A stretch of 9,930 bases of DNA from a virus (lineage: Duplodnaviria > Heunggongvirae > Uroviricota > Caudoviricetes). The notes below the pieces were generated by a model. The model was given only the letters and a program-made list of their open reading frames with translations, had not been told where the DNA came from and ran no database searches. Both the position numbers and the translations under genes were made by a program. The DNA is taken from the IMG/VR virus record IMGVR_UViG_2681813273_000007, positions 1-9,930 of that record; one strand, given 5' to 3'. Below, piece by piece: positions 1 to 9,930 of this stretch; positions within the stretch are counted from its first letter, which is position 1, and the number at the start of each line of letters is the position of its first letter.

Positions 1-10
1 ATATCACTAT

Positions 11-39
11 TTACTTTTAAAAATAACAGTGCTATTAAT
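11..39 (+). promoter_or_regulatory. Candidate sigma70 promoter for the cro-like gene (-35 TTACTT 11-16, 17-bp spacer, -10 TATTAA 34-39)
   Basis: Hexamers read directly from the sequence upstream of the first ORF; the divergent repressor side is outside the window. No operator could be defined. Confidence 0.25.
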
Positions 40-72
40 TATGCATTGGTAACACATCACATAGGGCGGATT

Positions 73-336
73 ATGAATCTTGGAGAATATTTGCATCATT
101 TTCATATAACCCAGAGTTCATTTGCTGAGATTGTTGGCGCATCCCAAGGGATGGTCAGCCACGTTATAACGGGGCGTGCAAAACTTACAGGAGAAAAAAT
201 ATTACGTTGGTGTGAAGCAACGGGATGGGTGGTGACCCCACATGAGATTGACAGTAAAACCTACCCCAACCCAACTGACGGCTTGCCTGCTGAGTTTCAG
301 GCTAACACACAACCATCGGCGGGGGTTGATTCATGA
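73..336 (+). CDS. ydaS: Cro-like HTH DNA-binding protein, YdaS family (ATG at 73; the ORF track starts at an upstream TTG at 46)
   Basis: Helix-turn-helix signature SSFAEIVGASQGMVSHVITGRAKLTGEKILRW; small size; stop overlaps the start of the next gene (ATGA at 333-336), as in ydaS-ydaT pairs of Rac-like prophages. Family assignment from memory. Confidence 0.6.
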   Translation: MNLGEYLHHFHITQSSFAEIVGASQGMVSHVITGRAKLTGEKILRWCEATGWVVTPHEIDSKTYPNPTDGLPAEFQANTQPSAGVDS

Positions 337-758
337 AAATCAAGCATGAACACATCCGCATGGCGATGAAAGCCTGGGCGCATCCGGACGGTGAAAAAGT
401 TCCGGCAGCTGAAATAACCAGGGTTTATTTCGAACTGGGAATGACGTTTCCGGTTCTGCATAACGACAGCAAGCACAACACGCTTTATCTCAACACCCAA
501 AAGATTTTCCGTTGGCTGGATAAAGACACCCCTGACGCTGTTGAAAAAATTCAGGCGTTGTTACCTGCGATCGAAAGGGCAATGCCACCTCCGCTGGTGG
601 CTCGAATGCGCAGCCACAGTTCAGCTTATTTTCGGGAACTGGTGGAGACGCATGAACGACTGGTGAGAGACGCTGATGATTTTGTCGCAGTGGCAATCGC
701 CGGTTTCAATCAGATGAACCGTGGTGGCCCGGCAGGAAATGCTGTGGCAGTACATTGA
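333..758 (+). CDS. ydaT: YdaT-like protein (CII-like regulator of Rac-type prophages)
   Basis: 141-aa ORF starting MKIKHEH, translationally coupled to the upstream cro-like gene; position and size match the YdaS/YdaT pair. Family assignment from memory of the YdaT N-terminus. Confidence 0.55.
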   Translation: MKIKHEHIRMAMKAWAHPDGEKVPAAEITRVYFELGMTFPVLHNDSKHNTLYLNTQKIFRWLDKDTPDAVEKIQALLPAIERAMPPPLVARMRSHSSAYFRELVETHERLVRDADDFVAVAIAGFNQMNRGGPAGNAVAVH

Positions 759-829
759 CTGACAATAGCCATATCGAATCGCTCCCGGCAACTCGTGAGT
801 AAAAAGATTCGGTATCAGAAGAGGTGAGT

Positions 830-1894
830 ATGGCTAACGCCTGGCTCAGATTATGGCATGACATGCCAAATGACCCTAAGTGGCGAACAATTGCCAGGGT
901 GTCAGGGCAGCCAATTGCAACAGTGATGGCAGTGTATATCCACCTCCTGGTGAGCGCGTCACGAAATGTCACGCGAGGTCACATTGATGTCACGACAGAA
1001 GATTTGGCAAGTGCGCTCGACGTGACAGAAGAGGTAATTGATTCAATTTTGCAGACGATGCAGGGGCGGGTACTTGATGGTGATTTAATCACTGGATGGG
1101 AAAAACGCCAGGTGCTTAAAGAGGACAACGGCAATATTTCGCAAACCGCAAAATCTCCTGCAGAGCGCAAGAGGGCGCAGCGAGAGAGGGAAAGAAAGCG
1201 GGAACAAAATGGCGATTGTCACGGCGCGTCACGAAATGTCACGCACATGTCACGACGAGTCACGACAGATACAGATAAAGATACAGATAAAGAAGATCAA
1301 AACACTATGGTCCATGGCGTAAAAAACGCCACGAACCAGGCAGGGGATGTTCAGACCGTCAATCCTGGTCAGCCAGCAGGCTCGACACCGGAAGCCGATT
1401 CAGCGTATGCGCTGAAAGCCGATTCGGGCGCTGTGCAGCAGGTGATGACCGCAAGGCCGGAGCAATCACTCCAACTGCAGCAGCCTGAAGCCGATTCCGC
1501 CATTCAGCGGGAAGCCGATCGGGTAGCCCCGGAAAACACCGGGCAGCCTGTGGGACGAGTGGATTATCCGGATGTGTTCGAACAGGTCTGGCGGGAATAC
1601 CCGTTGCGTGCCGGGGCAAACCCGAAGAAATCCGCATTCAGTGCCTGGAAGGCCAGATTGCGCGAGGGGGTGCCACCAGAGACCATGCTGGATGGTGTGA
1701 GGCGTTACGCGAGATACCTGGCGGCGACCGGGAAAGCGGGAACGGAATTTGTTCAGCGAGCGACGACGTTTTTTGGGCCGGACCGGAATTTTGAAAACCC
1801 CTGGTTGCTCCCGGTAAGCGGCACGAACAACCAGCGTTGTGTGAATCATATTTCTGAACCGGATACCGAAATTCCGCCGGGATTCAGGGGGTGA
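830..1894 (+). CDS. Phage replisome organizer (lambda O analogue) with DnaT-like C-terminal domain; ATG 830 preferred, GTG 824 also possible
   Basis: RBS GAGGTG at 821-826; C-terminus ...VNHISEPDTEIPPGFRG resembles the C-terminus of E. coli DnaT as I recall it; gene sits immediately upstream of a DnaC-like gene; central region is low-complexity and repeat-encoded. Confidence 0.7.
   Translation: MANAWLRLWHDMPNDPKWRTIARVSGQPIATVMAVYIHLLVSASRNVTRGHIDVTTEDLASALDVTEEVIDSILQTMQGRVLDGDLITGWEKRQVLKEDNGNISQTAKSPAERKRAQRERERKREQNGDCHGASRNVTHMSRRVTTDTDKDTDKEDQNTMVHGVKNATNQAGDVQTVNPGQPAGSTPEADSAYALKADSGAVQQVMTARPEQSLQLQQPEADSAIQREADRVAPENTGQPVGRVDYPDVFEQVWREYPLRAGANPKKSAFSAWKARLREGVPPETMLDGVRRYARYLAATGKAGTEFVQRATTFFGPDRNFENPWLLPVSGTNNQRCVNHISEPDTEIPPGFRG
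954..1292 (+). repeat. Iteron-like repeats inside the organizer gene: GTCACG at 958, 968, 978 (GTCACA), 989 and again at 1218, 1228, 1238, 1249, 1259; a 21-bp direct repeat at 954-974 and 1224-1244; tandem ATACAGATAAAG x2 at 1269-1292
   Basis: Counted directly; spacing within each cluster is 10, 10, 11 (and 10) bp, about one helical turn; an inverted copy CGTGAC lies at 1020-1025; AT-rich tract follows the second cluster. Confidence 0.55.
1391..1534 (+). repeat. Four degenerate 24-bp repeats beginning GAAGCCGATTC (1391, 1415, 1487, 1511) encoding EADS/KADS/EADS/EADR peptide repeats
   Basis: Counted directly in the linker region of the organizer gene. Confidence 0.5.
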
Positions 1895-1900
1895 TGTGGC

Positions 1901-2647
1901 ATGAAAAACATTGCGGCAGCCGGGGTTCTTGAACGTATTCACAGACTTGCACCACAGGGGGCGGTTCCACCGTACCGGACGGTGGAGGAGTGGCGGGAAT
2001 GGCAACTTGCTGAAGGACGAAAACGCAGCGAGGAGATTAACCGCCAGAATCGCCAGTTGCGGGTGGAAAAAATCCTGAATCGTTCGGGCATCCAGCCTCT
2101 GCACAGCAAATGCTCGTTTGCGAATTATCAGGTGCAGAACGACGGGCAAAAATACGCGCTGAGCCAGGCCAAATCCATAGCTGACGAACTGATGACCGGG
2201 TGCACGAATTTTGTGTTCAGCGGTAAAACCGGCACCGGGAAAAATCACCTTGCAGCGGCGATGGGTAACCGGCTGATGGCGAAGGGGCGCAGCGTGATTA
2301 TCGTCACCGAGTCTGATGTCATGAGCGTGTTGCATGACAGCTACGACAACGGCAAATCCGGTGAAAAATTTTTACAGGAGCTTTGCGGGGTTGATTTGCT
2401 GGTCCTGGATGAAATAGGCATTCAGCGGGAGACGAAAAACGAGCAGGTGGTATTGCACCAGATAATTGATCGCCGGACAGCATCACTGTGCAGTGTCGGG
2501 ATGTTAACAAACCTGAATCATGCCGCAATGAGCACGCTTCTTGGTGAGAGGATTATGGACCGCATGACCATGAACGGTTGTCGGTGGGTGACGTTTAACT
2601 GGGATAGCTGGCGTTCAAATGTCAGCTTTCCGGGAGTTGTGAAGTAA
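1901..2647 (+). CDS. DnaC-like replicative helicase loader (phage P analogue, AAA+ ATPase)
   Basis: Walker A FSGKTGTGKNHLAAA and Walker B LLVLDEIG; overall strong resemblance to host DnaC as recalled; start 7 nt after the stop of the DnaT-domain gene. Confidence 0.85.
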   Translation: MKNIAAAGVLERIHRLAPQGAVPPYRTVEEWREWQLAEGRKRSEEINRQNRQLRVEKILNRSGIQPLHSKCSFANYQVQNDGQKYALSQAKSIADELMTGCTNFVFSGKTGTGKNHLAAAMGNRLMAKGRSVIIVTESDVMSVLHDSYDNGKSGEKFLQELCGVDLLVLDEIGIQRETKNEQVVLHQIIDRRTASLCSVGMLTNLNHAAMSTLLGERIMDRMTMNGCRWVTFNWDSWRSNVSFPGVVK

Positions 2648-2668
2648 TTTTTGTTGGAGGATGTTTTA

Positions 2669-3394
2669 ATGGAAACTGTATTTGACGCACTGAAAGCACT
2701 GAAAAGAGCCTCTTCACATGTGGTGGCGTCCCGCCTTGGAATCAGCCGTGAAGATGCGGTCAACGAACTGTGGAAACTGAAGCGCCGTGGTGAAGCGGAT
2801 AACAAGGGTTCGATGTGGTGGCTGATTCAGGCTGGTGAAAGTGAACCAGTGTCACCGGTACCGAAAGTGACAGCGCAAATGCTGACTGAGGCGATTGAAC
2901 AACATGGCCCACAAACGGCGGATGAGCTGGCACTGATGTTCGGGATTACCTCCCGCCGGGCGAATTCATCGCTGGCCATGGCAATCAGCAAAGGGCGTCT
3001 GATTCGCGTGAATCAGGGCGGTAAATTTCGGTACTGCATACCGGGCGCTGATTTACCGGCAGAGCCGAAAGCCGCATCCATAGCGGAAACGGATGGTAAA
3101 GTCTTTCCTCAGCCAGCAGGTGTTGCGTTACCGGTACAGGAAGCTGCAACACAGGAAGAAATTAAAACAGAAACTGTGGCGGACATTGTGCAGTCGTTGC
3201 CATCGTTCACCGAAACGCAAGCGGATGACCTGGTTTTACCATCGCTGCATATGGCAAACCGCGAACTGCGTCGGGCGAAAAGTCATGTCCAGAAGTGGGA
3301 GCGTGTCTGCGCCGCGTTGCGGGAGCTGAACAAGCACCGGGATATTGTTCGACAGATTGTCGATTCCTCCGGTCGTATTGTGTCGGAAAAGTGA
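2669..3394 (+). CDS. Hypothetical prophage protein, 241 aa, two winged-helix-like segments and a charged C-terminal region (ORF track starts at TTG 2651; ATG 2669 has GGAGG 8 nt upstream)
   Basis: Long ORF with a good RBS; no family recognised. It has no counterpart between the DnaC-like and Ren-like genes of the second module. Confidence 0.5.
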
Positions 3395-3409
3395 TTGCCG
3401 GGGGCGCTT

Positions 3410-3649
3410 ATGGCAAAAGTATTTACACAGGAAGAGCGGGAAAAAATTAAGGGGCAGGTTGTTGAACTCGTACGCCAGAGTGGGCGCGAGACGTTACGAC
3501 AACTGGAAGCTAAAACCGGGGCGACAAGATATTTAATAAGCGTTCTCGCCAGAGAGCTGGTTGCCAGTGGGGATGTATACAACTCTGGCTACGGGTTATT
3601 CCCGTCTGAACAGGCTCGTAAGGACTGGCAAAACGCCCGCAAAAAACTC
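3410..3649 (+). pseudogene. ren: 5' part of a Ren-like gene (module I), interrupted after codon 80; the reading frame runs on into IS600 sequence to a stop at 3697
   Basis: Encodes MAKVFTQEEREK...QNARKKL, collinear with the intact 140-aa paralogue at 6359-6781; homology ends exactly where the IS end begins. Ren assignment from memory of the lambda Ren C-terminus (see 6359-6781). Confidence 0.55.
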
Positions 3650-3693
3650 ATGAGGTGTACTGGCAATAGCGGACACTACCATTTGTTCTTTTT

Positions 3694-4512
3694 TTAAGCA
3701 GCCATCTGATGATATTTTTCCCTGAAGGCTGCCGGGGAGATATTCCCCAGACGAGAGTGACGACGCTGACGATTGTAGAAAATCTCAATGTATTCCCGTA
3801 TTACTGAGATGGCTTCATCCCGGTTATTAAAACGATAGTGGCTCAGGCTCTCATTTTTCAGCGTTCCCCAGAAGCTTTCCATCGGAGCGTTGTCGTAACA
3901 GTTACCTTTACGCGACATTGATGTTTTCAGACCAGACTGCTCCTGTATGACCCGGTAATCGTATGCGCAGTACTGTGAACCTCGATCAGAGTGGTGGATT
4001 AGCCCGGCAGGTGGGCGCTGGCTCCTGAGCGCCATAAACAGGGCTTTACCTGTCAGCTCTTTTGTCATGCGCTCTCCCATGGCGTAGCCGACAATTTCGC
4101 ACGTATAAACATCTTTGATGCCAGCGAGGTACAACCATCCCTCCTGTGTGGCAACATACGTCAGGTCCGCCACCCAGACCTGATTTGGTGCTGTAGGAGC
4201 GAACGTCTGGTTCAGCAGATTTGGCGCAACTGGCAGATTGTGGTTCGAGTTCGTAGTCGCTCTGAACTTGCGTTTCTGCTTACAGCGTAGCCTTAGCTCC
4301 TTACGAAGACGTGCCAGTCGGTCACGACCAACGATGATGCCATTCTCTGCCAGCTCCGTCTGGAGCCGCCGGGTTCCATATGTTTCGCGAGTGCGGATAT
4401 GTGCCACCTTAATCTCCAGTTTTAGCCGCTCATCACTTTGTTTTCTGTCTGAGGGTTCATGCTGTACCCAGTTGTAATAACCGCTCCTGGATACACCAAA
4501 TACCTGACACAT
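3694..4512 (-). CDS. IS3-family transposase OrfB (DDE catalytic domain); the true OrfAB product is made by -1 frameshifting near 4592-4599, so the OrfB frame extends upstream of 4512
   Basis: 272-aa ORF from the first in-frame Met; integrase-like core; overlaps orfA in the -1 frame. Confidence 0.9.
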   Translation of the reverse strand: MCQVFGVSRSGYYNWVQHEPSDRKQSDERLKLEIKVAHIRTRETYGTRRLQTELAENGIIVGRDRLARLRKELRLRCKQKRKFRATTNSNHNLPVAPNLLNQTFAPTAPNQVWVADLTYVATQEGWLYLAGIKDVYTCEIVGYAMGERMTKELTGKALFMALRSQRPPAGLIHHSDRGSQYCAYDYRVIQEQSGLKTSMSRKGNCYDNAPMESFWGTLKNESLSHYRFNNRDEAISVIREYIEIFYNRQRRHSRLGNISPAAFREKYHQMAA

Positions 4513-4547
4513 CGCTTCAATGGGAAATTGTTGTCGCCATTGTTCGA

Positions 4548-4850
4548 TTAACGCGTATTTTTCAGCGACTCCTGTGCAAAATACGCTGTTGCTTTTTTTA
4601 ATATATCTCGCTCAAGGCGAGCTTCATTTAACGCCTTACGCAGTTGCAGAATTTCAGATTCCAGTTCAGCCACCGTGCGGGAACCAGGAGTACCGAGCCC
4701 TTTTCTGGCGGCGGTAACCCATTGTCCTAAAGTGCCTTCAGGAAGAGATAATCGGGAAGCGCCTTCACTGATCGAAAGTTGATTTTCAAGAACCGTTCTG
4801 ACAGCTTCGGCTTTGAACTCTTTAGAGTAACGTTGGGTTTTTCTGCTCAT
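4548..4850 (-). CDS. IS3-family transposase OrfA (HTH, leucine-zipper part)
   Basis: 100-aa ORF MSRKTQRYSKEFKAEAV... with an AAGGAG RBS; the A7G slippery motif (reverse complement of 4592-4599) lies near its 3' end. Confidence 0.9.
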   Translation of the reverse strand: MSRKTQRYSKEFKAEAVRTVLENQLSISEGASRLSLPEGTLGQWVTAARKGLGTPGSRTVAELESEILQLRKALNEARLERDILKKATAYFAQESLKNTR

Positions 4851-4914
4851 TATTAGCTCCTTCTGATGCCATTCTATTTCAGGAAGGAGTGTCCGTTAAA
4901 CTCAGGCTACCTCA

Positions 4915-5591
4915 GGTTATTCGCTTCTGGGCATGGGCGGATCAACAAATGATAGACGGTAATGCAGATTGTAACGCTCGCGGCGTTACAAAAAGTGCAA
5001 TAGATCGCATCACTTTTATGTCTGGTTTTGCTGATGCGTTAATTCAGGTTGGATGGCTGGTCGAAAATGACGGAGGGCTTTCTCTACCTAACTTTGAACG
5101 TCATAACGGAAAAAGCTCTAAAAAAAACGGGCGGTTACAAACGAGCGAGTAACAAAAATACGCGAACTGAAACGAAAAGGTAACGCTGCCAGCGTTACAC
5201 AAACGGATCAAAAAGCGTTACCAGAGGAAGAGGAAGAGGAAGATCTAAATACTGATCTCCCCCTCGCCAAAAACGAGCGTCTAAAAAATTCGAGCCGGAG
5301 GCTATTGAGCTGCCCGATTGGTTGCCGGAAACACTCTGGCATGAGTGGGTCCGGTTCAGACAGGCATTGCGAAAACCGATTCGAACGGAGCAGGGCGCTA
5401 ACGGGGCGATACGGGAACTGGAAAAATTCCGTCAGCAGGGTTTTACACCTGAGCAGGTGATTCGACACAGCATCGCCAATGAATACCAGGGCCTGTTCGC
5501 GCCGAAAGGTGTTCGGCCTGAGACGTTGCTCCGACAGGTTAACACCGTCTCGTTGCCGGACAGTGCGATCCCGCCAGGCTTCAGGGGGTAA
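4915..5591 (+). pseudogene. 5'-truncated, frameshifted replisome-organizer/DnaT-domain gene (module II)
   Basis: Begins abruptly at the IS end; three reading frames must be joined (switches inside A8 at 5120-5127 and A6 at 5283-5288) to obtain one protein ending ...VNTVSLPDSAIPPGFRG, the same C-terminal motif as the module I gene. Confidence 0.7.
4959..5221 (+). repeat. GTAACGC-type repeats in the module II organizer gene: 19-bp palindromes GTAACGC-N5-GCGTTAC at 4971-4989 and 5180-5198, half-sites at 4959-4965 (GTAATGC) and 5215-5221
   Basis: Counted directly; they occupy the same relative part of the gene as the GTCACG clusters of module I. Confidence 0.45.
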
Positions 5592-5597
5592 CGGACC

Positions 5598-6344
5598 ATG
5601 AAAAATATTGCGACAGGCGGCGTTCTGGAACGCATCCGCCGACTGACCCCGCCACATGTAACCGCCCCATTCAGAACGGTAGCGGAGTGGCGCGAGTGGC
5701 AACTTGCTGAAGGCCAGAAACGTAGCGAGGAGATCAACCGCCTGAATCGCCAGTTGCGGGTGGAAAAAATTCTGAATCGCTCAGGCATCCAGCCGTTGCA
5801 CCGTAAATGCTCGTTTGCGAATTACCAGGTGCAGAACGACGGCCAGCGATACGCGTTAAGCCAGGCGAAATCCATCGCCGATGAACTGATGACCGGGTGT
5901 ACAAATTTTGCGTTCAGCGGAAAACCTGGTACCGGGAAGAATCACTTAGCGGCAGCTATCGGGAATCGCCTGCTGAAAGACGGTCAGACAGTGATTGTGG
6001 TTACCGTGGCTGATGTTATGAGCGCCCTGCACGCCAGCTATGACGACGGGCAGTCAGGCGAAAAATTTTTGCGGGAGCTGTGCGAAGTGGATCTGCTGGT
6101 TCTTGATGAAATTGGCATTCAGCGCGAGACGAAAAACGAGCAGGTGGTGCTGCACCAGATTGTTGATCGCCGGACAGCGTCGATGCGCAGCGTGGGGATG
6201 CTGACAAACCTGAACTATGAGGTGATGAAAACATTGCTCGGCGAGCGGGTGATGGATCGCATGGTCATGAACGGCGGGCGCTGGGTGAATTTTAACTGGG
6301 AGAGCTGGCGTCCGAATGTTAGCCATTCGAGGGTTGTTAAGTAG
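5598..6344 (+). CDS. DnaC-like replicative helicase loader, second copy (about 85 percent identical in protein to 1901-2647)
   Basis: Walker A FSGKPGTGKNHLAAA, Walker B LLVLDEIG; collinear with the first copy. Confidence 0.85.
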   Translation: MKNIATGGVLERIRRLTPPHVTAPFRTVAEWREWQLAEGQKRSEEINRLNRQLRVEKILNRSGIQPLHRKCSFANYQVQNDGQRYALSQAKSIADELMTGCTNFAFSGKPGTGKNHLAAAIGNRLLKDGQTVIVVTVADVMSALHASYDDGQSGEKFLRELCEVDLLVLDEIGIQRETKNEQVVLHQIVDRRTASMRSVGMLTNLNYEVMKTLLGERVMDRMVMNGGRWVNFNWESWRPNVSHSRVVK

Positions 6345-6358
6345 TTTCAGGAGGATTT

Positions 6359-6781
6359 ATGGCGAAACCTTTTACTCCCGAACAGCGGGAAGAACTGAAG
6401 ACGCGAATTGTGGAACTCGTGCATCAGGACGGTCGGGTCACGATTCGGCAGTTGTCAGATGAAACAGGTATCAGTCGTGCGTCTGTCGGTCGCTTATGCA
6501 TAGAACTGGTCGCAAGTGGTGATGTATATAATTCTGGCTACGGCTTATTCCCGTCTGAACAGGCTCGCAAGGACTGGCAAAGCGCCCGCAAAAAACTCTC
6601 GAGAGTAAAGGTGAGGAAACCGGTTGTTGTTGATCCGGACCTTATCTGGTCATTACCTGACGGAGAAATACGCCGCTACGACAGGCGCCTGAATATAATC
6701 TGTCGCGAGTGCCGGAAGAGCGAAGCTATGCAGCGTGTACTGGCTTTCTATCAGGGTAATTTTCAGGAGGCGATACTGTGA
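6359..6781 (+). CDS. ren: Ren-like protein (module II), intact, 140 aa
   Basis: Strong RBS AGGAGG at 6348-6353; N-terminal winged-HTH-like segment and a C-terminus ...ICRECRKSEAMQRVLAFYQG that matches lambda Ren (...KECRQSAAMKRVLAVYG) as I recall it; position after the P-like gene as in lambda. Confidence 0.5.
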   Translation: MAKPFTPEQREELKTRIVELVHQDGRVTIRQLSDETGISRASVGRLCIELVASGDVYNSGYGLFPSEQARKDWQSARKKLSRVKVRKPVVVDPDLIWSLPDGEIRRYDRRLNIICRECRKSEAMQRVLAFYQGNFQEAIL

Positions 6782-6838
6782 ATGAAATTAGCTATCAGGC
6801 TTCAATTACCGCTGGCATTCGCATCAAAGGAGAGGAGC

Positions 6839-6952
6839 ATGGAAATAAAACGATATTGCTTAACTCATCTTCTGGTTTTATTTCCGGTAAAAGAGGATGA
6901 CCCTCGTAATCAGGTTAATTTTCTTTATGAGCCATCGGAAAGACCATATTAG
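6839..6952 (+). pseudogene. Truncated 5' fragment (37 codons) of the small Cys/coiled-coil gene, module II allele
   Basis: MEIKRYCLTHLLVLFPVKEDDPRNQVNFLYEPSERPY then a stop at the junction; same RBS and start context as the intact gene at 7215. Confidence 0.45.
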
Positions 6953-7157
6953 GCAAAACGCCCGCAAAAAACTCTCGAGGGCAAAGCTGAAGAAACCATC
7001 TGTGGTTGATCCGGACCTTATCTGGTCATTACCGGACGGAGAAATACGCCGCTACGACAGACATCAGAACATAATCTGTCGCGAGTGCCGGAAGAGTGAA
7101 GTTATGCAGCGTGTACCGGCTTTCTATCAGGGTGATTTTCAGGAGGCGGTACTGTGA
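6952..7157 (+). pseudogene. ren: 3' part of the split module I Ren-like gene
   Basis: Encodes QNARKKLSRAKLKKPSVVDPDLIWSLPDGEIRRYDRHQNIICRECRKSEVMQRVPAFYQGDFQEAVL; its first 23 bp (6952-6974) are identical to 3627-3649, the last bases of the 5' part before IS600. Confidence 0.6.
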
Positions 7158-7214
7158 GTGAAATTAGCTATCAGGCTTCAATTACCGCTGGCATTCGCAT
7201 CAAAGGAGAGGAGC

Positions 7215-7571
7215 ATGGAAATAAAACCAGAAGATGAGTTAAGCAATATTGTTTTATTTCCGGTAAAAGAGGATAACCCTCGTAATCAGGTTAATTTTCT
7301 TTATGAGCCATCGGAAAGACCATATTGCCATCACGCTTCTGTCCGGGTTGACGAAAAAGAGCGTCAGGTCCGCTGTAAAATTTGCGGTGCAGTTGTGGAG
7401 CCATTTGACTGGATGCTCTCTGTGGCGAAAAGAGAAACCAGACTGGCAGATGATGTAAGGCTCTTGCGCCAGGAGGAGCGGGAAAGGCGAAAAAATATAG
7501 AAAAGCTAATCCAGATTGAGCGTAATGCGAAAGCGCGGATACGCAGGGTGACAAAATATAGCCCCGAATAA
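7215..7571 (+). CDS. Hypothetical small protein, 118 aa, Cys/His cluster (C-H-H ... C-x2-C) followed by a charged coiled-coil-like C-terminus
   Basis: Strong RBS AGGAG at 7203-7210 with ATG at 7215; the ORF track begins at an upstream in-frame codon (7158), which I do not prefer. Confidence 0.5.
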   Translation: MEIKPEDELSNIVLFPVKEDNPRNQVNFLYEPSERPYCHHASVRVDEKERQVRCKICGAVVEPFDWMLSVAKRETRLADDVRLLRQEERERRKNIEKLIQIERNAKARIRRVTKYSPE

Positions 7572-7785
7572 TCAAGGTTATTTCTGGAAGTCAAGTCGTG
7601 AGTGATGAGGACTAACAAATACGGTGAACTCGATAAAGAGATTCAGGACGAACTGGAGGCCAGGAATGATTGACAAATCACCAAGTGAGTTCAGCTACAA
7701 AGATTTATTGTCATAACGGGTTATGAGATCGACTTGGTGCGTGATATTCTTCGGGCCAGTTTGCTATGCGCCACCATGAGATGTT

Positions 7786-8223
7786 ATGGCCCGCATGTTT
7801 GATACATTAGGATTTTACATTATGAATGTGCAACATTTTGATTTTTTTACAGATAATGAGTTTTCTAATCTGGAAAGATATCAAACTTGTAAAGCCATGG
7901 CCAAAGGTTATGCGGGCAATTACAAAACCGGGCAGTCAAGGTTGATGCATGCCCGCTCATACTGCTTCAGCATCGTAGCTGCATATTGGGATACACGGGT
8001 TGACGAAAAAGAGCGTCAGGTCCGCTGTAAAATCTGCGGTGCGGTTGTGGAGCCGTTTGACTGGATGCTCTCTGTGGCAAAAAGAGAAACCAGACTGGCA
8101 GATGATGTAAGGCTATTGCGCCAGGAGGAACAGGAAAGGCGGAGAAATATAGAAAAGCTGATACAGATTGAGCGTAACGCGAAAGCGCGGATACGCAGGG
8201 CGACAAAATCCAGAACTGAATAA
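7786..8223 (+). CDS. Hypothetical paralogue of the 118-aa protein: different N-terminal half, near-identical C-terminal 75 aa (alternative start ATG 7822 with AGGA 8 nt upstream)
   Basis: DNA 7996-8208 is about 95 percent identical to 7343-7555; upstream parts are unrelated. Confidence 0.45.
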   Translation: MARMFDTLGFYIMNVQHFDFFTDNEFSNLERYQTCKAMAKGYAGNYKTGQSRLMHARSYCFSIVAAYWDTRVDEKERQVRCKICGAVVEPFDWMLSVAKRETRLADDVRLLRQEEQERRRNIEKLIQIERNAKARIRRATKSRTE

Positions 8224-8370
8224 TTAAATTTAGCACTGTTAAAAATTTAATCCTTAACCGGAGGGATTTCTGCACCCTCAAATCATCAGGAGACCACCCG
8301 AAAGGGCGGGGAGCAGTCACACATCTGTTTCCGATAGCCCCGTTCTAATGCTACACTCTTTGATATTTTT

Positions 8371-9057
8371 ATGACCCCAATAAACATATTTATGACAGTT
8401 GCTGATTTCAAACGGCCCAAATTGGAGCTCCCAAACGGGGCAAACAAACTACTACTGCACTCTTGCTGTGCTCCATGTTCCGGTGAGGTGATGGAGGCGC
8501 TTCAGGCCTCGGGAATCGACTACACCATCTTTTTCTACAACCCGAACATTCATCCTCAGAAAGAGTATTTAATTCGTAAGGATGAGAATATTCGCTTTGC
8601 TGAACAACACGGCGTGCCGTTTATTGATGCTGATTACGACACAGACAACTGGTTTGAACGAGCCAAAGGAATGGAATGGGAGCCCGAACGAGGGATCCGT
8701 TGCACCATGTGTTTTGACATGCGTTTTGAGCGGACAGCGCTGTACGCCGCTGAAAATGGTTTCAGTGTGATCAGCAGTTCACTGGGCATTTCACGCTGGA
8801 AAAATATGCAGCAGGTTAACGACTGTGGGCGGCGAGCCGTCGCGCATTATCCGGGCATGGTGTACTGGGATTATAACTGGCGCAAGCAGGGCGGCTCGTC
8901 CCGTATGATTGAAATCAGCAAGCGCGAAAAATTCTATCAGCAGGAATATTGTGGCTGTGTGTATTCTCTGCGCGATACCAATCTACACCGCAAATCTCAG
9001 GGACGCCCTCTTATCAAAATTGGTCAACTCCACTACGGTAAAGAAGAGAAGGAGTGA
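8371..9057 (+). CDS. queH: QueH-like protein (DUF208 family, epoxyqueuosine reductase-like); start may be the internal ATG at 8392
   Basis: N-terminal [11 protein letters not shown] motif plus later Cys pairs (CTMC, CGC), which I recall as the DUF208/QueH signature; 228 aa is the expected size. Not verified by search. Confidence 0.55.
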
Positions 9058-9116
9058 TTTTATGGGGCACCTTTCTGATTGATTTCATATTGGCGAGGTA
9101 AGTAGAATGACTGCGG

Positions 9117-9284
9117 GTGCTTGAGGCTATCTGCTTCAGGCATGAACACCAAAAGGCAGATAGAGAAAAGCCCCAGTTAACATTACGCGTCCGGCAAGAC
9201 GCTTAACATTAATCTGAGGCCAATTTCATGCTTTGCACATGTAGGTTAGCCTCTTACATGCCGAAAGGCAAGGAGAAGCAGGCT
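9117..9284 (+). promoter_or_regulatory. Leader of the hok-family mRNA (predicted 5' folding elements)
   Basis: Sequence GCTTGAGGCTATCTGC...GCAGATAG forms an 8-bp stem (9127-9134 with 9156-9163) and resembles hok mRNA leaders as recalled; precise 5' end not determinable. Confidence 0.4.
9180..9260 (-). ncRNA. sok: Predicted sok-like antisense RNA overlapping the mok start region (position approximate)
   Basis: Inferred only from the conserved organisation of hok/sok loci; I could not define a convincing promoter or terminator on the minus strand. Confidence 0.25.
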
Positions 9285-9440
9285 ATGAAGCAGCAAAAGG
9301 CGATGTTAATCGCCCTGATCGTCATCTGTTTAACCGTCATAGTGACGGCACTGGTAACGAGGAAAGACCTCTGTGAGGTACGAATCCGAACCGGCCAGAC
9401 GGAGGTCGCTGTCTTCGTAGACTACGAATCCAGGAAGTAA
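9228..9440 (+). CDS. mok: Mok-like reading frame (in-frame N-terminal extension of hok)
   Basis: 70-aa ORF MLCTCRLASYMPKGKEKQA followed in frame by the Hok peptide, as in chromosomal mok/hok pairs. Confidence 0.55.
   Translation: MLCTCRLASYMPKGKEKQAMKQQKAMLIALIVICLTVIVTALVTRKDLCEVRIRTGQTEVAVFVDYESRK
9285..9440 (+). CDS. hok: Hok/Gef-family type I toxin, 51 aa, single transmembrane helix
   Basis: MKQQKAMLIALIVICLTVIVTALVTRKDLCEVRIRTGQTEVAVFVDYESRK is very close to HokC/HokD as recalled; AAGGAG RBS 10 nt upstream. Confidence 0.85.
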   Translation: MKQQKAMLIALIVICLTVIVTALVTRKDLCEVRIRTGQTEVAVFVDYESRK

Positions 9441-9517
9441 GAGTGACCGGGCGGGGAGCTGATCCCATCCCCGCCCACCTCTGATGTGTCAGGCATCCTC
9501 AACGCACCCGCACTTAA

Positions 9518-9560
9518 CCCGCCCATCGCTGTGATCTCTCAGCGTTTCGGCGGGTTTTTT
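9518..9560 (+). terminator. Candidate intrinsic terminator / hok mRNA 3' element (CCCGCC ... GGCGGG stem followed by T6)
   Basis: Stem arms at 9518-9523 and 9549-9554, T run 9555-9560; the loop is long (25 nt), so this is a weak call. A tighter hairpin GGGCGGGGA/TCCCCGCCC lies at 9450-9478. Confidence 0.4.
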
Positions 9561-9699
9561 GTTGTTTATTTCCGGTGAATTTGATTCGCGCACCTTCGCA
9601 GATAGAATCGACTCACTTAAGTAGCGCGCAGGGAGAAGAGGGATGGACCCCGAACAGGGGAGAGCTATTTATCTGGAAGGATTCTGAAGATGAAAATCG

Positions 9700-9930
9700 A
9701 AGAATTGCGTGAAATTTTTAGTGAAAATGGCCTCTATGCTGTGCGCGTTGAGAATGGAGCGATTGTCAGCCATTGCCGCATTAGATGTTTGCAATCTCAA
9801 CAAAGGAAGAGCGGTGCTGTGTTATTTTATTTTTGTAATGGACTTCTGACGGACGGTTTTATTTTGCGTGAGGACGAATTTGTCACATCATTACGGGTTT
9901 TGAAAGAGATAGGTTTTAAGGCTGGTTTTC
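9700..9930 (+). CDS. 5' part of an unrecognised gene running off the window end (MKIEELREIFSENGLYAVRVENGAIVSHCRIRCLQ...)
   Basis: Open frame of 77 codons from an ATG with AAGGA upstream and no stop before the window edge; absent from the ORF track because it is unterminated. Confidence 0.35.

Follow-up and report, generated by a model that had tools for sequence, protein, structure and literature searches.

The split gene and its flanking 23-bp repeat in the window, by which we mean the whole 9930-bp stretch of DNA analysed here, are almost certainly a scaffolding artefact in which four contigs from two prophage remnants of Shigella sonnei were misjoined. The window is a scaffold and not a contiguous piece of genome, and the observation is without biological significance.

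Gaps at the three switch points of the window

The window is the entire record CXEN01000180.1 of the S. sonnei draft assembly GCA_001258415.1. When the deposited record was compared with the window, the two were found to be equal at 9927 of 9930 positions; the other three, 3650, 6951 and 7995, are N in the record and A in the window. They are the exact points at which the best match switches between locus A of finished S. sonnei CP104423.1 (L011, used as the reference for contigs c1 and c3) and a finished S. sonnei locus B (L005, the reference for c2 and c4); as a misjoin by scaffolding would have it, all three joins coincide with an N of the deposited record. The resulting layout is A-IS600-B-A-B and not A-insert-A, with a return to module II (locus B) at 7995. 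The contigs and their genes are collected in Table 1.

Table 1. Positions of contigs, gaps, genes and repeats in the window.
Feature	Position	Strand	Locus	Remarks
Contig c1	1-3649	+	A (Qin/DicB-type prophage remnant)	matches L011 6112-9760, 2 differences
cro-like gene			A	in c1
YdaT-like gene	333-758		A	c1; Pfam
Replisome organizer gene	830-1894		A	c1
ydaV/DnaC-like gene	1901-2647		A	c1; Pfam
DUF1627 gene	2669-3394		A	c1; Pfam
DUF977 gene, first 240 nt	3410-3649		A	c1; Pfam
23-mer, copy 1	3627-3649	+	A	last 23 bases of c1; L011 9738-9760
Scaffold gap	3650	.		N in CXEN01000180.1, A in window
Contig c2	3651-6950	+	IS600 + B (Rac-like prophage remnant)	matches L005 8763-12062
IS600 (IS3 family), 1264 bp	3651-4914	-		opens c2; 99.8% identical to annotated IS600 of E. 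coli VL40
IS600 orfB	3694-4512	-
IS600 orfA	4548-4850	-
Organizer gene, 3' remnant	4915-5591	+	B	compared with the intact gene of E. coli FDAARGOS_944 (L001 7898-8686)
ydaV (DnaC/IstB-like ATPase)	5598-6344	+	B	78% DNA identity to the locus A copy
DUF977 gene, intact, 140 aa	6359-6781	+	B	Pfam DUF977, E = 1e-33
118-aa gene, 5' part	6839-6950	+	B	c2 ends here, within a 61-bp exact A/B repeat
23-bp core between 11-bp inverted arms (6841-6851, 6875-6885)	6852-6874	.	B	flipped relative to every other copy examined
Scaffold gap	6951	.		N in CXEN01000180.1, A in window
Contig c3	6952-7994	+	A	100% identical to L011 9738-10780
23-mer, copy 2	6952-6974	+	A	start of c3
DUF977 gene, 3' part	to 7157		A	c3
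118-aa gene	7215-7571		A	c3
N6-adenine methyltransferase gene, first 209 nt	7786-7994		A	c3; Pfam Eco57I and N6_Mtase
Scaffold gap	7995	.		N in CXEN01000180.1, A in window
Contig c4	7996-9930	+	B	matches L005 12080-14014, 1 difference
118-aa gene, 3' part	to 8223		B	c4
QueH gene	8392-9057		B	c4
hokD-like gene	9285-9440		B	c4
Rem gene, start only			B	c4

The junction 31-mers were found only in the window and in L017, and these sequences are peculiar to CXEN01000180.1. Among about 15 billion proteins, the chimeric 145-aa ORF across 7995 was present on 1 contig. Exact look-up of the ORFs spanning 3650 and 6951 returned nothing, which a codon containing N in the record may explain, so this result is not independent evidence. 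A sequenced novel junction linking A and B is absent, as the three junction bases are all N in the record and no other assembly has the junctions. Microhomology at the junctions (the "orphan" A at both 3650 and 6951, and the three overlapping bases TAC at 7995) became moot, the bases being N placeholders. A diverged 376-bp tandem duplication of 6576-6950 and 6952-7326 (90% identity) arising by unequal crossing-over was also rejected, given that 6952-7994 is 100% locus A and 6951 is N.

Loci A and B in finished genomes

Locus A was found to be unbroken across 9760/9761 in all six finished S. sonnei genomes (L011-L016), and there c1 and c3 overlap by exactly 23 bp. Similarly, locus B is unbroken across 12062-12080 in all five B loci from finished S. 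sonnei, as well as in E. coli L001, and in the finished locus c2 and c4 are separated by 17 bp. In two assemblies (L012/L006 and L013/L007) one chromosome carries both loci, about 0.87 Mb apart and in opposite orientation. The comparison with related genomes proposed in the initial annotation therefore returned both an uninterrupted "Ren-like" gene, with DUF977 intact in 6/6 finished A loci, and the module II block elsewhere, contiguous as locus B in 5/5 finished S. sonnei; two separate contiguous loci are what a scaffolding misjoin requires. The annotation's reading of the region as an IS-associated rearrangement or a recombination between two related prophages is not borne out, because the three junctions are all single-N joins and the pieces are contiguous at these separate loci. 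In the collection of complete E. coli genomes, which is without Shigella, coverage of the whole window structure reached 58% in the best record and 80% in none.

The gene order in locus A is organizer, ydaV, DUF1627, DUF977, 118-aa gene and methyltransferase, and that in locus B is organizer interrupted by IS600, ydaV, DUF977, 118-aa gene, QueH and hokD; across the replication module the two share 78-92% DNA identity. The order YdaT-like gene, replication organizer, DnaC-like YdaV and DUF977 is also that of the ydaU-ydaV-ydaW region in the Rac prophage of E. coli K-12, the ydaW of which we take to be a DUF977 member, and relatives carry the RefSeq names "ydaV", "toxin YdaT family" and "DUF977 family protein". 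Locus A differs from the Rac region in having an additional DUF1627 gene and a different, putative organizer that has no Pfam match. At least 1000 contigs carry the intact DUF977 of locus A, and the same lower bound holds for the intact 118-aa protein of locus B and for the intact methyltransferase; exact protein look-up placed the locus B DUF977 on 997.

The 23-mer GGCAAAACGCCCGCAAAAAACTC has exact copies at 3627-3649 and 6952-6974, for which the chance expectation was 0 in 200 shuffles, and the reading frame, that of DUF977, is lost after 3649 and picked up again at 6952; on both counts the window text agrees with the initial annotation. A third copy with one mismatch was found at 6576-6598 inside the DUF977 gene of module II (locus B), and the 23-mer therefore belongs to a conserved segment of this gene. 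The name "Ren-like" could not be kept. In hmmscan against Pfam, the A and B copies gave full-length matches to DUF977 (PF06163; E = 2e-30 and 1e-33, respectively) together with weak winged-helix matches, and neither copy matched a Ren family at E ≤ 0.01. The resemblance to Ren is one of position only, downstream of a DnaC-like gene.

The 14 differences between c2 and L005 all fall within the core at 6852-6874. The flipping of this 23-bp core is not accounted for by a scaffolding error; it could be a genuine, private inversion of a hairpin loop inside coding sequence, which is more plausible than a real mosaic.

IS600 and its insertion site

The element that opens c2 has the length, the imperfect inverted repeats (20 of 30 terminal positions match, with TG...CA ends), the two overlapping ORFs and the slippery A-run (an A7G site near 4599) of IS600 and the IS3 family. 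In the window text it is preceded by TCA and followed by GGT, as had been noted earlier, and the observation that it is without a matching 3-bp duplication is correct for this text. It does not hold at the true site, since GGT-IS600-GGT was found in four of the five finished B loci (L005 and L007-L009), and the uninterrupted organizer gene of E. coli L001 has a single GGT and reads GGGAAGGTTATTCGC. The IS600 of these four loci is a plain insertion in the replication-organizer gene with a matching GGT/GGT duplication, contrary to the claim that this is "not a simple insertion". The flanks disagree since the window has, to the left of IS600, a different contig plus a placeholder base; position 3650 being N in the record, the A of TCA is itself a placeholder and was not sequenced. 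Compared with a simple IS3-family insertion (1264 bp, two overlapping ORFs, the A7G site and the 3-bp GGT duplication at the true site), the window differs in that the left flank is swapped for an unrelated contig, by which the duplication seems unmatched.

The right end of IS600 does adjoin the interior of an organizer gene, as annotated, and the 3' remnant of locus B starts there. Broken by IS600, this remnant has been broken further by two added A (5120-5121) and by the loss of 10 bp (at 5258); in the window it is identical to that of finished S. sonnei, and the junction ORF at 4889-5152 was present on 492 contigs by exact protein look-up.

A block that starts at an IS end and has direct-repeat flanks in the window text could also be read as IS600 transposed, along with 2 kb of the locus B DNA next to it, in a one-ended or composite manner into the DUF977 gene of locus A with a 23-bp target duplication. 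The true site has however a duplication of 3 bp (GGT) instead of 23 bp, no IS end is present where the block stops on the right (6950), both boundaries are N, and after c3 the sequence goes back to locus B and not to A. We regard the chance of such a transposition as negligible.

Origin of the joins

The ends of the contigs point to misjoining by a scaffolder. With respect to exact repeats common to A and B, c1 ends in a 21-mer and c2 in a 61-mer, and c4 begins at the first base of a 38-bp repeat; c2 begins at the end of the multicopy IS600. Repeats were found in this way at the ends of c1 and c2 and at the starts of c2 and c4, and the right end of c3 (A 10780), which lies at no recognised A/B repeat, is unaccounted for. 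The short-read assembly almost certainly broke A and B at such short exact repeats, and the scaffolder then joined the contigs A1, IS600+B1, A2 and B2 in that order with one N per join. The 23-bp "junction repeat" is the genuine overlap of the neighbouring contigs A1 and A2, and the "3.3-kb composite block" the contig IS600+B1 set between them. Cross-mapping of read pairs between the A/B repeats and the multicopy IS600 probably gave the false links. The three joins presumably have no read support across them. The interleaved order c1, c2, c3, c4 is unlike what insert-size-consistent scaffolding should give.

The account of assembly in Page et al (2016; PMC5320598) states that the pipeline used for the S. 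sonnei assemblies CXFB-CXFF scaffolds with SSPACE and inserts N gaps, calls SSPACE and GapFiller greedy in a way that "can lead to false joins", and gives an average of 405 contigs for S. sonnei assemblies. The false joins of that account resemble the present ones in being bridged by N and situated at repeats, here paralogous prophage modules and multicopy IS, and both the species and the accession neighbourhood match. They differ in that two loci alternate here as A, B, A, B, which goes beyond one wrong join, and in that the use of this Velvet, SSPACE and GapFiller pipeline for CXEN01 is our inference.

The initial annotation had also pointed to a 23-bp overlap as something that an assembly join may leave behind. 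This was right in substance, the repeat being a true overlap of two contigs from the same locus, and wrong as far as an untrimmed k-mer overlap at one join is meant. One of the two copies does close a contig and the other opens a second one, as an untrimmed de Bruijn overlap at a single join would have it, but such an overlap is excluded because the copies are 3.3 kb apart with the sequence of another contig between them. Furthermore, 23 would imply k = 24, and Velvet is not known to accept even k. A single k was sought from the A/B SNP positions, which imply k = 17 and k = 29, and none fits both ends. An untrimmed overlap is hence scarcely credible.

Mosaic prophages of E. coli and Shigella arise by recombination between resident lambdoid prophages, and the present case has the same ingredients, namely one genome with two resident remnants whose replication modules are homologous (78-92% DNA identity). 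It differs in that the recombinant junction is unsequenced and both loci are unrecombined in finished genomes. The A-IS600-B-A-B order could be a real mosaic of the isolate, formed by IS600-mediated and illegitimate recombination with the Ns as small gaps at true junctions, or it could have come from template switching or gene conversion between the remnants 0.87 Mb apart, again with the Ns as tiny gaps at real junctions. In their favour, the deposited record states this order, S. sonnei is IS-rich with several IS600 copies close to locus B, and the identity between the A and B modules could support exchange. Against this, for a real mosaic the inverted loci 0.87 Mb apart must have been newly joined three times, independently and within 4.4 kb, and each time at an unsequenced base. 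Only 17 bp are lost and 23 bp duplicated, as is typical of contig ends but not of recombination, and the junctions and the chimeric ORF are confined to CXEN01000180.1. In addition, the sister assembly CXFB01000014.1 (L010) has a single N one base to the left of the same IS600 copy and links this contig across it to a different left neighbour. We consider the IS600-mediated mosaic very unlikely, and the variant by template switching or gene conversion very unlikely to the same degree.

Under the scaffolding misjoin, paralogous prophage remnants in IS-rich genomes such as that of Shigella are a predictable source of false "composite insertions". Scaffold joins can occur in windows taken from draft assemblies. 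In the present case the Ns, which would have given warning, had turned into A; scans of draft-derived windows should retain or flag Ns. The misjoin has already placed a chimeric protein, CSS52041.1, in public protein databases.

Layout of the window and its switch points

Compared with the Rac-like prophage of E. coli FDAARGOS_944 (L001), the window matched at 4914-6950 (98.6%) and 7995-9930 (99.9%), adjacent stretches of one phage type, and compared with the Qin/DicB-type prophages L003 and L004 it matched at 1-3649 and 6952-7586, two stretches of another type that overlap by exactly 23 bp. With two stretches for each phage type, the layout was therefore read as A, IS600, B, A, B, where A denotes the Qin/DicB-type and B the Rac-like remnant of S. 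sonnei. The initial annotation had described A, insert, A; the return to A at 6952 stood and the second switch to B had been missed. The self-comparison showed two replication modules that are 78% identical (1871-2650 and 5568-6347), an apparent 376-bp tandem repeat (6576-6950 and 6952-7326, 90% identity) and a second partial duplication (7344-7575 and 7996-8227, 92% identity).

The window is the complete record CXEN01000180.1 of the draft assembly GCA_001258415.1 and was identical to the public record at 9927 of 9930 positions. The only three differences, at 3650, 6951 and 7995, are N in the record and A in the window, and they are exactly the three A/B switch points. Thus, the "contig" is a scaffold of four contigs (c1 to c4) separated by single-N gaps. 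The A found at these positions in the window is a former N character, and the two "orphan" A, one following CTC at 3650 and one at 6951, are placeholders. The 31-mers across the junctions, with a wildcard at N, were matched in no compared sequence except the window and its public record. The c1 end lies inside an exact A/B 21-mer and the c2 end inside an exact A/B 61-mer, c2 opens with the terminus of IS600, a multicopy element, and the first base of c4 is also that of a 38-mer that is an exact repeat common to A and B; no recognised repeat was found at the right end of c3.

Loci A and B in finished S. sonnei genomes

The comparison set contained five finished or near-finished copies of locus B (L005-L009) and six copies of locus A (L011-L016). 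Locus A reads cro-like, YdaT, organizer, ydaV, DUF1627, DUF977 (140 aa, intact), 118-aa gene, N6-adenine methyltransferase and restriction enzyme, and locus B reads Cro, YdaT, organizer 5' end, IS600, organizer 3' end, ydaV, DUF977, 118-aa gene, QueH and hok. In two assemblies (L012/L006 and L013/L007), both loci are on the same chromosome, ~0.87 Mb apart and in opposite orientations.

Contigs of the scaffold and their matches in S. sonnei copies of locus A (L011, from finished CP104423.1) and locus B (L005)
Contig	Window	Match	Differences
c1	1-3649	L011 6112-9760	2
c2	3651-6950	L005 8763-12062	14, all in 6852-6874
c3	6952-7994	L011 9738-10780	0
c4	7996-9930	L005 12080-14014	1

The 23-mer GGCAAAACGCCCGCAAAAAACTC has exact copies at 3627-3649 and 6952-6974 (chance expectation zero, from 200 shuffles) and a third copy with one mismatch at 6576-6598. 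The frame opening at 3410 departs from its family beyond 3649, and the corresponding 3' part begins at 6952. The initial annotation had described the window correctly in its 23-mer positions, IS600 flanks and frame break. The protein that it called Ren-like is, as judged by its sequence, a member of the DUF977 family. An uninterrupted gene, for which comparison with related genomes had been proposed, was found as the intact 140-aa DUF977 gene of locus A, the sequence running without interruption over the supposed insertion point in 6/6 finished copies, and the intact protein occurs in at least 1000 contigs. The module II block, also to be sought elsewhere, lies in a locus B that is uninterrupted in 5/5 finished S. 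sonnei copies and in E. coli L001. What had been noted as a 23-bp "junction repeat" is most probably the true overlap between the c1 end and the c3 start, both of locus A, and the "3.3-kb composite block" is most probably c2 wrongly placed between them.

The preferred interpretation of the initial annotation, an IS-associated rearrangement or a recombination between two prophages, is not supported, as all three joins are N and the loci are uninterrupted in finished genomes. Its fallback suspicion of an assembly join was essentially correct. We infer that the joins have no read support, and the arrangement is almost certainly a scaffolding artefact and not a real feature. A sister S. sonnei draft (L010, CXFB01000014.1) also has a single N, at 8762, one base to the left of this IS600 copy. 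In that draft the element has another neighbour on its left, a truncated Rac-type ydaV, so that a scaffold join of this kind is seen there again. Page et al (2016, PMC5320598) document the S. sonnei assemblies CXFB-CXFF, CXFB01000014.1 among them, as products of Velvet, followed by SSPACE scaffolding with N gaps and then GapFiller, and characterise SSPACE and GapFiller as greedy, noting that they "can lead to false joins". The CXEN assembly was presumably made by this pipeline.

IS600, the modules and probable products of the joins

The IS600 (3651-4914, 1264 bp) is 99.8% identical to an annotated IS600; its terminal inverted repeats are imperfect, and it contains an A7G slippery site. The missing 3-bp duplication noted earlier is true of the window text (TCA left, GGT right) and not of the true site, where GGT is present on both sides (L005, L007-L009); the mismatch arises because the A of TCA is the placeholder at 3650. 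In L001, whose organizer gene is uninterrupted, the sequence is GGGAAGGTTATTCGC. The GGT on both sides together with this gene indicated that IS600 is a plain insertion in the locus B organizer gene. By exact-sequence look-up, the ORF over the IS600 right end (4889-5152) occurs in 492 contigs, finished S. sonnei chromosomes among them. Relative to the intact FDAARGOS_944 gene, the organizer 3' remnant (4915-5591) has an A-run lengthened by two A (5120-5121) and lacks 10 bp at 5258. Both changes are frameshifting and are also present in finished S. sonnei; therefore, the locus B module is genuinely decayed. Inside the locus A organizer gene, direct repeats containing GTCACG are clustered at 954-999 and 1218-1269; they look like iterons of a putative lambda-type origin within the initiator gene.

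The 145-aa ORF at 7786-8223, annotated in Shigella sonnei as "putative bacteriophage protein" (CSS52041.1), spans the gap at 7995: the first 70 residues belong to the N6-adenine methyltransferase of locus A and the last 75 to the 118-aa protein of locus B. It was found in one contig only by exact-sequence look-up and is a singleton cluster in NCBI nr, whereas the intact methyltransferase and the intact locus B 118-aa protein each occur in at least 1000 contigs. This chimeric ORF is most probably a by-product of the c3/c4 join, as the apparent 376-bp tandem repeat most probably is of the c2/c3 join. The conserved 118-aa protein is encoded downstream of DUF977 (window 7215-7571 and, 3' part, 7996-8223; L005 11951-12307) and is very common in E. 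coli and Shigella prophages (cluster of 3282 members). Pfam gave it no family beyond a TFIIB-type zinc-ribbon match that falls short of the Pfam cutoff (E = 1.6e-4). Downstream of the replication module, the prophage remnant also carries a QueH (epoxyqueuosine reductase) gene at 8392-9057 and a hokD-type toxin gene at 9285-9440.

Scaffolding does not explain one feature, a 45-bp hairpin-like element at 6841-6885 whose 23-bp core (6852-6874) lies between two inverted arms of 11 bp and is flipped. All five finished S. sonnei B loci, E. coli L001, L004 and also the locus A copy (compare 7217-7261) have this core in the opposite orientation. The reading frame remains open across the core. In its context, the flipped core is absent from complete E. 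coli genomes, the best full-length match being 90.9%. A genuine, private inversion of the hairpin loop or an error close to the end of a contig may account for the flip.

The change of N to A conceals the scaffold gaps from readers of the raw sequence. The two paralogous lambdoid replication modules, the IS600 insertion in the decayed locus B organizer gene and the DUF977 protein are ordinary biology of this region, and the isolate most probably carries loci A and B as two separate prophage remnants, as do all finished S. sonnei genomes that were examined.
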